The notes beneath the pieces are model-generated. The model was not told where the DNA came from. It searched no databases and worked only from the letters and a program-made list of their open reading frames with translations. Positions 35,503 through 37,741 of a stretch of 64,000 nucleotides of DNA are shown here, in pieces. How positions within the stretch are numbered: the first letter of the stretch is position 1; each line of letters starts with the position of its first letter. Origin of the DNA: Desulfobacterales bacterium (GTDB lineage Bacteria; Desulfobacterota; Desulfobacteria; Desulfobacterales; YD0425bin51); assembly GCA_015228685.1 (NCBI GenBank), contig JADGCY010000009.1, forward strand, positions 39,589-103,588, in the 5' to 3' direction. The translations under genes and the position numbers were made by a program.

Positions 35503-36609
35503 TTAGTTCTCTTTGTCCGGTATTCTCTGTTTTTTTTGTTCAATTGTCTGTTTCATTAGTTCATTATGTTTTTGTGAAAATTCTTCTCCACGACGAATTT
35601 CACTTGCCATTTCTCCATAAATTTCATCTTGAATGCGTTTAATTTTTTCTTCTTTTTCAGTTTTACTTAAGTTTTGATCTTTTAAAATTTCATTTTTCTT
35701 CAGATCATAAGATTGATCTCTGTTTTTTTCTTTTTCAATTTTTTCTTCGGCTAATTCCATTTCTTTAACGTCTTCAGTAGAAAAAAATTCTTCTCTTATT
35801 GCTCTGAGTTTTTTTCTTTTTTCATCTTCTGTCATTTCGTCCATATCTTTTTTATAAAGCTGAAGTTTTTGTTGATAAGCTGTCTCATCGTTTTTATCAG
35901 ATAAAAAACTATCAGCCGCATCTCCAAATATTTTAGCTGCTATCATCTGTATTTTTTTTTCTTTTTCAGAGCCGTATAATGATTTATCTTTATGAATTTT
36001 ATCTGTCATTATGTCAAATAATACAGTCTTATGCTGATATCCAAAAAGTCCTTCGCCAAGATCATTTCCTAATTTTGTTTTTCTAAATTCATAAATTTTG
36101 TTAGAAAGATTGATCCAGCCCTGTTCATTTTTAGGCTGTTCCCATGCAAGCATTGCTTGCTGGAGTTCTAATTCGCAATCTAAGTACAGCGTATAAATTT
36201 TCATTATTTTTTCTACTGTTTCACTGGAAAATTCTTTCATTAGATGCTCTCTTACTTTGGATAGAAAATCGTCTCTATCTTTTGAATCTCTAAATTTAAA
36301 ATATAGGGATTGAAGATATTCTCTAAAAGATTCGTTTATAAAACCTTTATCAAAATCGCTATAAATATTTCCAGCATTAGTTTTACTATAGTTTTTTTTA
36401 ACATCTTCCTTTAGGCTGGAATTTTTAATAAATGATTGTTCAGGAGATTTTATGTCAGATAAATCAGATTTTTGTTTTTTTAGGTCTAATTCTGTTTTTT
36501 GAATCTCTTTTTTTTCACCCATCAAATAAATAATAACTATAATGAGAATAATATTTAATATTATTGCTGGCAGAAGAATGGTTAAAAGCTTTTTTTTATT
36601 GCTATCCAT
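35503..36609 (-). CDS. Membrane-anchored helical protein, candidate lipase-specific foldase (Lif)-like
   Basis: N-terminal TM anchor, long E/K-rich helical body. Sits immediately downstream of a family I.1/I.2 lipase as in lipA-lipH operons. Only weak resemblance ('ADSFLSD') to the Lif RxxFDYFLSA motif. Confidence 0.3.
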   Translation of the reverse strand: MDSNKKKLLTILLPAIILNIILIIVIIYLMGEKKEIQKTELDLKKQKSDLSDIKSPEQSFIKNSSLKEDVKKNYSKTNAGNIYSDFDKGFINESFREYLQSLYFKFRDSKDRDDFLSKVREHLMKEFSSETVEKIMKIYTLYLDCELELQQAMLAWEQPKNEQGWINLSNKIYEFRKTKLGNDLGEGLFGYQHKTVLFDIMTDKIHKDKSLYGSEKEKKIQMIAAKIFGDAADSFLSDKNDETAYQQKLQLYKKDMDEMTEDEKRKKLRAIREEFFSTEDVKEMELAEEKIEKEKNRDQSYDLKKNEILKDQNLSKTEKEEKIKRIQDEIYGEMASEIRRGEEFSQKHNELMKQTIEQKKQRIPDKEN

Positions 36610-36649
36610 ATGGATATCCTTTCAATTGTCAATTGCTATACTCAATATA

Positions 36650-36698
36650 TATTTTAAAAAAATAAAGCGAGCAAGGTAATTTTTTACCTTCCCGCTTT
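36650..36698 (-). terminator. Rho-independent terminator-like hairpin downstream of the lipase gene
   Basis: AAAGCG..AAGGT/ACCTT..CGCTTT imperfect stem (36664-36698). On the minus strand it is followed by a T-tract (36650-36663). Confidence 0.4.
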
Positions 36699-36730
36699 AT
36701 CTTGTCTGTTTGATGTTTTAGTAAATTAAA

Positions 36731-37741
36731 TTATAAGCCTTTTGCTTTTAAATCTTTGACAATAGCTTCAAATTTATCTGGTGCGCTGAAGAAACCTGTA
36801 ATTCCGTATGGTAAGCCTGTTGCATTGCAATGGTCAATTCCTGCTATTTGAGCCCATCCACCGTCATCTACTCCTCTATAATTTGCCCATGTAGCGCTTT
36901 TAACACTAACAATACCATCACTATCTTGATGAGGACCGCCTTTATAACCTATTGTTTCTGCCAAACATTGAACCGGCATAGTTAAAGCCATCAATTGAAT
37001 TAAGCCTATTTGAGGAACTGGCAAGCATAATAATTGTTTCATTTTATGAGTATAGCTTTGACAATAAACACCTGGGATACCATTATTGCCGCCCATGCTT
37101 TGATATAAACTAGCAGCTCCATCTATAGACAAATCGAATCCATTTGCTTTAGAATCTCCATATACATCAGATTCTTCATTTCCAAATAGAGTTCCAAAAC
37201 CTAATGTATAAGCAGCGTTGATTAATGTAGTAAGAGCGCTGTTAGTTCCATAATCTACAGCTAAAAGGGCATCTGCTACAGGTGAACCTTGGTTAGGTGA
37301 ATCAATTTGTGTTAAACTTGCAATACGGGTTGATGGTAAAGACCATGTTTTAGTACCATATTTAGGACTTGTATAAGATTGATTTAAGATAGCAAATCTT
37401 GTATATATTCCACCATGAGAATGCCCAATAATATTTACTTTACTATGCTTTGGCAAAACATTTGTATTTAAATAATTTGCAAATTGGTATGCTTTTGTGC
37501 CTGTTGCTGCCATTTTATCTACTTGAGCAATGTAAACTGTTGCACCTTTTGATCTTAATCTATCTGCAACTTTATTAAAATATTCTATATAACCAGGAAT
37601 GTCATTCATTGCTATACCATGTGCTAGTACTATTGGATTTTGAGTTTGACAAGATGTATCAGTTTTAGTTCCTCCTGCAATAGCTGTATATGGAATTAAA
37701 ACAGCCACAAAAAATAGAATCATTATAAATAATTTTTTCAT
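36731..37741 (-). CDS. Secreted triacylglycerol lipase, family I.1/I.2 (Pseudomonas/Burkholderia 'true lipase' type)
   Basis: 'NPIVLAHGI' matches 'YPIVLAHGM'. Nucleophile 'VNIIGHSHGGIYTRFAI' matches P. aeruginosa LipA 'VNLIGHSHGGPTIRYVAA'. C-terminal 'SDGIV...IDHCN' matches the Asp/His region. Start set at the signal-peptide Met (MKKLFIMILFF) with AGGAG RBS; the longer ORF runs to 37843. Confidence 0.85.
   Translation of the reverse strand: MKKLFIMILFFVAVLIPYTAIAGGTKTDTSCQTQNPIVLAHGIAMNDIPGYIEYFNKVADRLRSKGATVYIAQVDKMAATGTKAYQFANYLNTNVLPKHSKVNIIGHSHGGIYTRFAILNQSYTSPKYGTKTWSLPSTRIASLTQIDSPNQGSPVADALLAVDYGTNSALTTLINAAYTLGFGTLFGNEESDVYGDSKANGFDLSIDGAASLYQSMGGNNGIPGVYCQSYTHKMKQLLCLPVPQIGLIQLMALTMPVQCLAETIGYKGGPHQDSDGIVSVKSATWANYRGVDDGGWAQIAGIDHCNATGLPYGITGFFSAPDKFEAIVKDLKAKGL

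Follow-up and report, generated by a model that had tools for sequence, protein, structure and literature searches.

Within a 64,000-nt stretch of a Desulfobacterales bacterium genome (assembly GCA_015228685.1, contig JADGCY010000009.1, positions 39,589 to 103,588; hereafter the window), two neighboring genes on the minus strand very probably make up a two-gene module of a secreted lipase and its steric chaperone, of the LipA/Lif (LipA/LipH) type, on a Desulfobacterales chromosome. The first gene encodes a lipase and the second a lipase-specific foldase (Lif). Four independent lines of evidence support this pair: a Pfam match to PF03280, a profile of the foldase clade that reaches solved foldases, structural matches obtained with Foldseek, and a conserved gene order. 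We regard the locus as a real, divergent copy of a known lipase/foldase pair, unstudied in this lineage. The two genes are as follows:

36731..37741, minus strand: lipase gene, 336 aa, encoding a family I.1/I.2-like alpha/beta hydrolase (open reading frame and translation)
35503..36609, minus strand: lipase-specific foldase gene (lif), 368 aa, PF03280, the next co-oriented open reading frame, 121 nt after the lipase gene

The gene downstream of the lipase encodes a foldase

An initial annotation, made from the sequence alone, had proposed that a dedicated foldase is encoded immediately downstream of the lipase and had suggested a profile search against Lipase_chap (PF03280). When this search was run, residues 139-329 of the protein matched model positions 2-185 of 192 with an E-value of 9.5e-14 and a score of 52.2 bits, above the gathering cut-off of 25.7 bits, which bears out the proposal. 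The NCBIfam model "lipase secretion chaperone" also matched, weakly, and a precomputed PF03280 match was present on all 17 foldase homologues found except one fragment. Across 18 foldase sequences, 13 residues are invariant.

A phmmer search of the PDB with the single foldase sequence returned nothing relevant. With a clade profile built from the window foldase and its four closest relatives, the Acinetobacter baumannii foldase LipB (9g8u_B, 9e-11) and the Burkholderia glumae Lif (2es4_D, 4e-3) were both recovered, so that by sequence the solved foldases were reached through the clade profile only. An AlphaFold2 (AF2) model built on 18 homologues comprises 11 helices, is helical with high confidence between about residues 90 and 360, and has a predicted local distance difference test score (pLDDT) above 90 over residues 90-350. 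When this model was compared with the PDB using Foldseek, the first three ranks were occupied by 9g8u_B, 2es4_E and 2es4_D, each with a probability of 1.00. The E-value for 9g8u_B was 6.3e-6, with template modelling (TM) scores of 0.51/0.64, and that for 2es4_D was 1.7e-3, while the fourth match fell to 0.27; only 9g8u_B and 2es4_E lay at E<=0.001. Over about 262 columns, the helical domain can be aligned with the foldases in 9g8u and 2es4.

Foldases of this kind have been described as a transmembrane helix followed by a variable linker and by the helical domains MD1-EHD-MD2 (PMC13381987), and the same plan can be read in the window protein:

36520..36588, minus strand: N-terminal transmembrane anchor, residues 8-30, after K5-K7; a 23-residue hydrophobic stretch, modelled by AF2 as a helix over residues 5-31
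36355..36519, minus strand: disordered, variable linker rich in Lys, Ser and Glu, about residues 31-85; pLDDT below 50 over residues 24-81
35524..36342, minus strand: all-helical "headphone" chaperoning domain spanning about residues 90-362, the counterpart of MD1-EHD-MD2 (AF2 and Foldseek)

The N-terminally anchored, all-helical nature that the initial annotation had ascribed to this neighbor is thus seen in the lysine triplet, the hydrophobic helix and the model. Across 18 homologues K6 and K7 hardly vary; by the positive-inside rule the protein would be tethered to the inner membrane and face the periplasm. The linker is unalignable and of variable length among homologues. Profile, fold, architecture and gene context together support the assignment of 35503..36609 as a gene for a true lipase-specific foldase.

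The upstream gene encodes a family I.1/I.2-like lipase

The lipase gene starts at ATG 37741, 7 nt after an AAGGAG ribosome-binding site, while the mechanical open reading frame list begins it at TTG 37843. The 336-aa product from this ATG is identical over its full length (100%) to the database protein HQK79_08140 [Desulfobacterales bacterium], which is labelled "MAG: hypothetical protein" (MAG, metagenome-assembled genome). Both motifs on which the initial annotation had based a LipA-type lipase (VNIIGHSHGG and PIVLAHG) are present. The nucleophile elbow reads KVNIIGHSHGG, with GHSHGG at residues 106-111 and G106-H-S108-H-G110 at 37412..37426, and the oxyanion region reads NPIVLAHG. In an alignment of 50 homologues the catalytic residues are almost fully conserved:

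37418..37420, minus strand: catalytic Ser108, conserved in 50/50 homologues
36917..36919, minus strand: catalytic Asp275, conserved in 49/50 homologues
36830..36832, minus strand: catalytic His304, conserved in 49/50 homologues
37676..37741, minus strand: putative Sec-type signal peptide, MKKLFIMILFFVAVLIPYTAIA / GG, read by eye from the sequence

The features of this putative signal peptide, namely a basic N-terminus, a hydrophobic core and an A-x-A site, are kept across the clade alignment of lipases. All 14 matches of a phmmer search against the PDB were family I.1/I.2 enzymes, led by 9g8u_A (7.7e-14) and 1ex9 (8.5e-12), followed by Burkholderia lipases. The AF2 model of the lipase (pLDDT 90.9, predicted TM score 0.88) was matched best by 1ex9 in Foldseek (E 1e-20, TM 0.69/0.81), and next by 9g8u_A and the Burkholderia I.2 enzymes. 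Ranks 1-16 were all I.1/I.2 lipases, and families I.5/I.6 came next with E-values about 1e6-fold weaker, so both sequence and fold uphold the lipase assignment. Sequence profiles cover just the N-terminal ~190-230 residues in comparison with canonical I.1/I.2 enzymes, and the clade carries an insertion of about 13 residues behind the nucleophile helix. Two residues past the catalytic His, where the P. aeruginosa lipase (PAL, 1ex9) has its Ca2+ ligand D253, the window lipase has N306; N occurs in this column in 26/50 homologues and D in 14/50, and the second PAL ligand, D209, falls in a part that does not align reliably. Judged from these comparisons, the enzyme is I.1/I.2-like and probably belongs to a sister clade rather than to either subfamily.

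The gene pair is conserved in related genomes

At 57-71% identity, 18 relatives of the lipase were found (19 listed when its own database record is included), in MAGs of Desulfamplus, Desulfobacterales and Desulfosalsimonadaceae and in metagenome contigs, and Thermodesulfobacteriota account for a large second tier at about 35%. In all loci with enough flanking DNA (L001-L007 and L009), a PF03280 gene comes next after the lipase gene, in the same orientation:

L001/L004, L002 and L003: lipase then lif, three Desulfamplus MAGs
L005: lipase then lif, a Spirochaetota MAG
L006: lipase then two tandem foldase paralogues, Deltaproteobacteria MAG WY5.bin12
L007: lipase then lif, cultured Desulfobotulus mexicanus
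L009: lipase then lif, a Desulfobacteraceae MAG

The two genes stay together even between lineages that share only about 30% identity. For L010, which carries a second-tier lipase, no foldase gene was found within 4 kb downstream.

The initial annotation had suggested that this lineage is one where such lipases are not expected. This is overstated, as pairs occur in other Desulfobacterota, D. mexicanus included, and in the Spirochaetota MAG. An exhaustive profile search for the foldase subfamily returned 130 cluster representatives (at 50% identity) at E<=1e-30 and 995 at E<=1e-3, and given these 130 clusters the pair is unsurprising in its lineage. Genomes and MAGs of Desulfobacterota commonly carry Lipase/Lipase_chap pairs, on which public data already show PF03280 tags. 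The lipases of known Lif-dependence, by comparison, are all gamma- or betaproteobacterial, and the characterized foldases come from Pseudomonas, Acinetobacter, Vibrio, Psychrobacter, Burkholderia and Ralstonia (PMC12096544, Table 1).

The foldase diverges faster than the lipase, for example 44% against 69% identity. Over nine pairs, the pairwise identities of the two proteins gave a Pearson r of 0.83 and a Spearman rho of 0.33 (p 0.05); we dropped this correlation as evidence of co-evolution, since a few close relatives drive the result.

Two observations concern the copy number of these genes. In L006 (3546..6816) the two foldase genes, 4790..5773 and 5785..6816, lie 11 nt apart and could reflect duplication or specialization. 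A sibling MAG, HQK78 (P0001, P0002, P0018), holds a partial foldase copy 100% identical to that of the window together with a second lipase/foldase pair, whose proteins are 65% and 54% identical to the window pair; because of this second pair, such organisms probably carry two paralogous lipase-foldase loci.

Comparison with characterized lipase-foldase systems

The best PDB match is the A. baumannii LipA:LipB complex (9g8u), in which the two window proteins match the two chains of one complex (Foldseek E 3.8e-20 for the lipase with chain A and 6.3e-6 for the foldase with chain B). The domain plan of a lipase with a signal peptide and a membrane-anchored helical foldase is shared, though only about 24% of residues are identical in the lipases and 18% in the foldases, and the window lipase differs in having the extra ~13-residue insertion and in lacking the canonical disulfide. 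With P. aeruginosa LipA/LipH (1ex9, family I.1; PMC13381987, PMC7046727), the window pair shares the GHSHGG elbow, PIVLAHG, the signal peptide, the foldase architecture and the order of lipase before foldase, whereas in the window a conserved hairpin separates the genes. In the B. glumae lipase:Lif complex (2es4, family I.2), chains E and D are the second and third fold matches of the foldase and the lipase matches 2es4_B; the clade profile matches 2es4_D over its EHD/MD2 part, foldase identity is 14-16%, and the lipase aligns by sequence to the B. glumae type over the N-terminal ~190-215 residues only.

Lif-independent I.1 lipases of the P. fragi/Proteus type (4gw3, 6cl4) have the same fold and likewise lack the C183-C235 disulfide, but they have neither a signal peptide nor a Lif gene in the genome (PMC12096544), while the window lipase has both. 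A PF03280 gene within 5 kb ("Neighbor Lif") and a secretion signal have been put forward as predictors of Lif-dependence (PMC12096544), and since the window lipase has a neighboring PF03280 gene and a putative signal peptide, it is predicted to be Lif-dependent. At three loci of gammaproteobacterial type (L011 from Alcanivorax sp., L012 and L013), a PF03280 gene likewise lies behind the lipase gene in the same orientation, as in the window. The genes there overlap or abut (a 14-nt overlap, a 4-nt overlap and a 2-nt gap), which suggests translational coupling, in contrast to the hairpin-bearing spacer of the window clade.

A conserved hairpin lies between the two genes

The spacer between the lipase and foldase genes contains one structural element:

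36655..36703, minus strand: intrinsic-terminator-like hairpin followed by a U-tract, between lipase and lif (direct folding)

Within the 121-nt spacer, a 20-bp stem with a free energy of -22.6 kcal/mol (z -6.8) is followed by a U-run, and none of 200 shuffled sequences was as stable. A simple terminator scan missed this hairpin because of a one-base bulge in the stem. No Rfam family matched it above threshold (the single match reached 20 bits, the gathering score being 65.5), and a literature search on intergenic stem-loops in lipase/foldase operons, and on the MAG names, returned nothing useful.

A hairpin with a T-run was found between lipase and lif in 8/8 distinct loci (the window, L001, L002, L003, L005, L006, L007 and L009), which cover about five lineages at <70% lipase identity. 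These hairpins are GC-rich, and although the spacer varies from 71 to 158 nt in the clade and reaches 680 nt in L002, hairpin and T-run always lie inside it. The hairpin described in the initial annotation is therefore present, but as an argument against linkage of the two genes it loses its force, being a conserved part of the locus. We infer that it serves as a leaky terminator or attenuator internal to the operon, or as a 3' stabilizer, within one transcription unit. Most transcripts would then stop behind the lipase gene, with a minority continuing through the hairpin into lif, and a leaky terminator would thus give abundant lipase mRNA and less read-through mRNA for the foldase.

Divergent features and alternative explanations

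Several observations weigh against a LipA/Lif-type module. Identity to characterized proteins is low, 20-24% for the lipase in structural alignments and 14-18% for the foldase, and the literature yielded no experimental study of a Desulfobacterota lipase/Lipase_chap pair. No type II secretion (gsp/xcp) genes occur among the ~40 open reading frames scanned in the window. Because four co-directional genes follow lif without a terminator, an unrecognized separate lif promoter is possible in the window. In the lipase, K281 stands six residues past the catalytic Asp, at the position of C235 in PAL, and hence the canonical C183-C235 disulfide is absent. A Cys occupies the C235-equivalent column in 39% of distant relatives; the clade conserves C31, C227, C239, C259 and C305 instead.

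The last of these points concerns the MD1 motif, one that matters when P. aeruginosa LipH activates its lipase. Helix 1 of MD1 carries the Lif consensus RxxFDY(F/C)L(S/T)A, which in LipH spans R94-A103 and reads R94NLFDYFLSA103 (PMC13381987). Two stretches of the window foldase bear on this motif:

36295..36324, minus strand: MD1-motif equivalent, REYLQSLYFK, residues 96-105 (HMMER clade-profile alignment to A. baumannii LipB)
35896..35916, minus strand: "ADSFLSD", residues 232-238, a non-conserved stretch of the alignment

The HMMER alignment sets the clade sequence "sLReYlksLyfk" opposite "tRDCFEYFITQ" of A. baumannii LipB, so that REYLQSLYFK corresponds to RDCFEYFITQ. The canonical motif is not found in the window foldase, in which the Arg alone is retained. 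L102 is the sole invariant residue of the motif stretch in a five-sequence foldase alignment, and more distant clade foldases have TLNFFQYLD at this position. The weak Lif-like motif that the initial annotation had seen in "ADSFLSD" was rejected: the string exists, but relatives have gaps or unrelated residues there, and it lies in the wrong domain, about 130 residues past the true position. On the alignment, it is a chance resemblance.

Could the two genes be separate transcription units? In that case the hairpin would be a complete terminator, lif and the PilZ, cell-wall hydrolase, RluA-like and vault-like genes past it would share a promoter of their own, and adjacency to the lipase would reflect co-inheritance. 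The hairpin and U-tract are indeed very stable, about 46 nt separate the U-tract from the lif ATG in the window, and no hairpin follows lif, past which lie four co-directional genes (gaps of 44, 3, 3 and 24 nt). Against this, a scan of the minus strand of the window spacer (36610..36730) revealed no sigma-70-like element, and the genes past lif are not conserved among relatives. Moreover, the distance from T-run to lif ATG is only 16 nt in L007 and 20 nt in L009, a space that already holds the lif ribosome-binding site, so no promoter fits there. We therefore consider separate units unlikely. Still less probable is that the foldase is no longer needed, either because the lipase has become Lif-independent like those of P. 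fragi and Proteus or because the foldase serves another client. The degenerate MD1 motif would agree with such a loss, as would the missing disulfide, a trait of Lif-independent lipases (PMC12096544), whereas the two published predictors of Lif-dependence, the retention of the pair down to ~30% identity, the confidently predicted foldase fold and its 13 invariant residues all speak for a working foldase. We hold this explanation to be very unlikely.

Rather than a true lipase of long-chain triacylglycerols, the enzyme might also be an esterase of another specificity with the same fold (for sterol esters, wax esters, polyesters such as polyhydroxyalkanoate (PHA), or phospholipids) that still depends on its foldase. 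Of the alternatives this one deserves the most weight, though it stays well short of probable. Identity to characterized lipases is about 23%, the clade has its own ~13-residue insertion and new cysteines, a cholesterol esterase (7cof) ranks among the top fold matches, and a second, cytoplasmic alpha/beta hydrolase, whose neighboring gene runs divergently from that of the lipase, has weak PHA-synthase-like matches. Triacylglycerol lipases nevertheless dominate the top matches, and no sequence feature points to another substrate. It is quite unlikely, finally, that the Desulfobacterota/Spirochaetota clade forms a mechanistically distinct Lif branch, with motif and disulfide replaced, the hairpin acting as a regulated attenuator that sets the lipase:foldase ratio and export perhaps proceeding by a route other than Xcp/Gsp.

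Proposed mechanism and significance

For the LipA/Lif-type module, a course of events can be proposed by analogy with the Pseudomonas and Burkholderia systems (PMC13381987, PMC12096544). The prelipase would cross the inner membrane by the Sec pathway and its signal peptide would be cleaved; the tethered foldase would then embrace the near-native lipase and help it past a kinetic barrier to the active fold, after which the folded lipase would be released and exported. The fatty acids set free could plausibly feed a fatty-acid-oxidizing sulfate reducer. BamA, LpxB/LpxD, LptF/G and SurA are encoded in the window, and the host is therefore a diderm with a periplasm.

This locus and its relatives place the lipase/steric-chaperone pair firmly in anaerobic Desulfobacterota, with a further occurrence in a Spirochaetota MAG. 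The lineage differs from known systems in its degenerate MD1 motif, its altered cysteine pattern, and a terminator-bearing spacer in place of overlapping genes, and it may help to sort essential from lineage-specific foldase features. The assignment is of use for annotating MAG proteins now labelled "hypothetical" and for enzyme mining, as heterologous expression of such lipases would need their own foldase. The locus opens no new biological question.

A possible promoter and the neighboring genes

The Pseudomonas lipA promoter is sigma-54-dependent, and Pseudomonas lipase operons are under two-component, sigma-54-dependent control. Upstream of the window lipase gene, one element of this kind was noted as a lead only:

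37795..37809, minus strand: sigma-54-like -24/-12 element GGCAT-N5-TTGCT (GGCATactatTTGCT), 69 nt upstream of the lipase ATG

No other match occurs on either strand of the 64-kb window, where about 0.52 would be expected by chance. The element was not found upstream of any related lipase gene, and the window encodes no sigma-54 activator. In D. mexicanus (L007, 592..3716), a sensor kinase and a sigma-54-dependent response regulator are encoded directly upstream of the lipase-foldase pair, an arrangement reminiscent of the control in Pseudomonas. A search within 300 nt of the L007 lipase gene gave no -24/-12 element.

Downstream, lif begins a co-directional run that continues with PilZ, cell-wall hydrolase and RluA-like genes and ends with a major-vault-protein-like gene. 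The PilZ gene (34709..35458, minus strand) starts 44 nt past lif with no terminator between, and encodes a polytopic membrane protein whose C-terminus bears a PilZ (cyclic di-GMP-binding) domain; an EAL-domain protein is encoded elsewhere in the window, at 49415..50725. The last gene of the run (30773..33223, minus strand) encodes an 816-aa protein with a major-vault-protein shoulder domain (PF11978, 7.8e-28), a Vault_3 repeat, a Band_7/SPFH domain and a long coiled-coil tail, and is a bacterial vault-protein-like gene.

Two further alpha/beta-hydrolase genes, 37990..38955 and 28838..29803, both on the plus strand, encode proteins without obvious signal peptides. The former is divergent from the lipase gene and gives weak matches to class III/I PHA synthase models. 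Beyond it, an HdrA-like flavoprotein gene (38978..41398, plus strand) appears as two same-frame open reading frames of 198 aa and 602 aa, separated by one TGA at 39572..39574 in the context FPTMDCSI*ILGPKM. HdrA sequences normally carry a Cys at this position, and for this reason the TGA is probably a selenocysteine codon. A possible stem resembling a selenocysteine insertion sequence (SECIS), TTTTAGG...CCTAAAA, lies just downstream of it.

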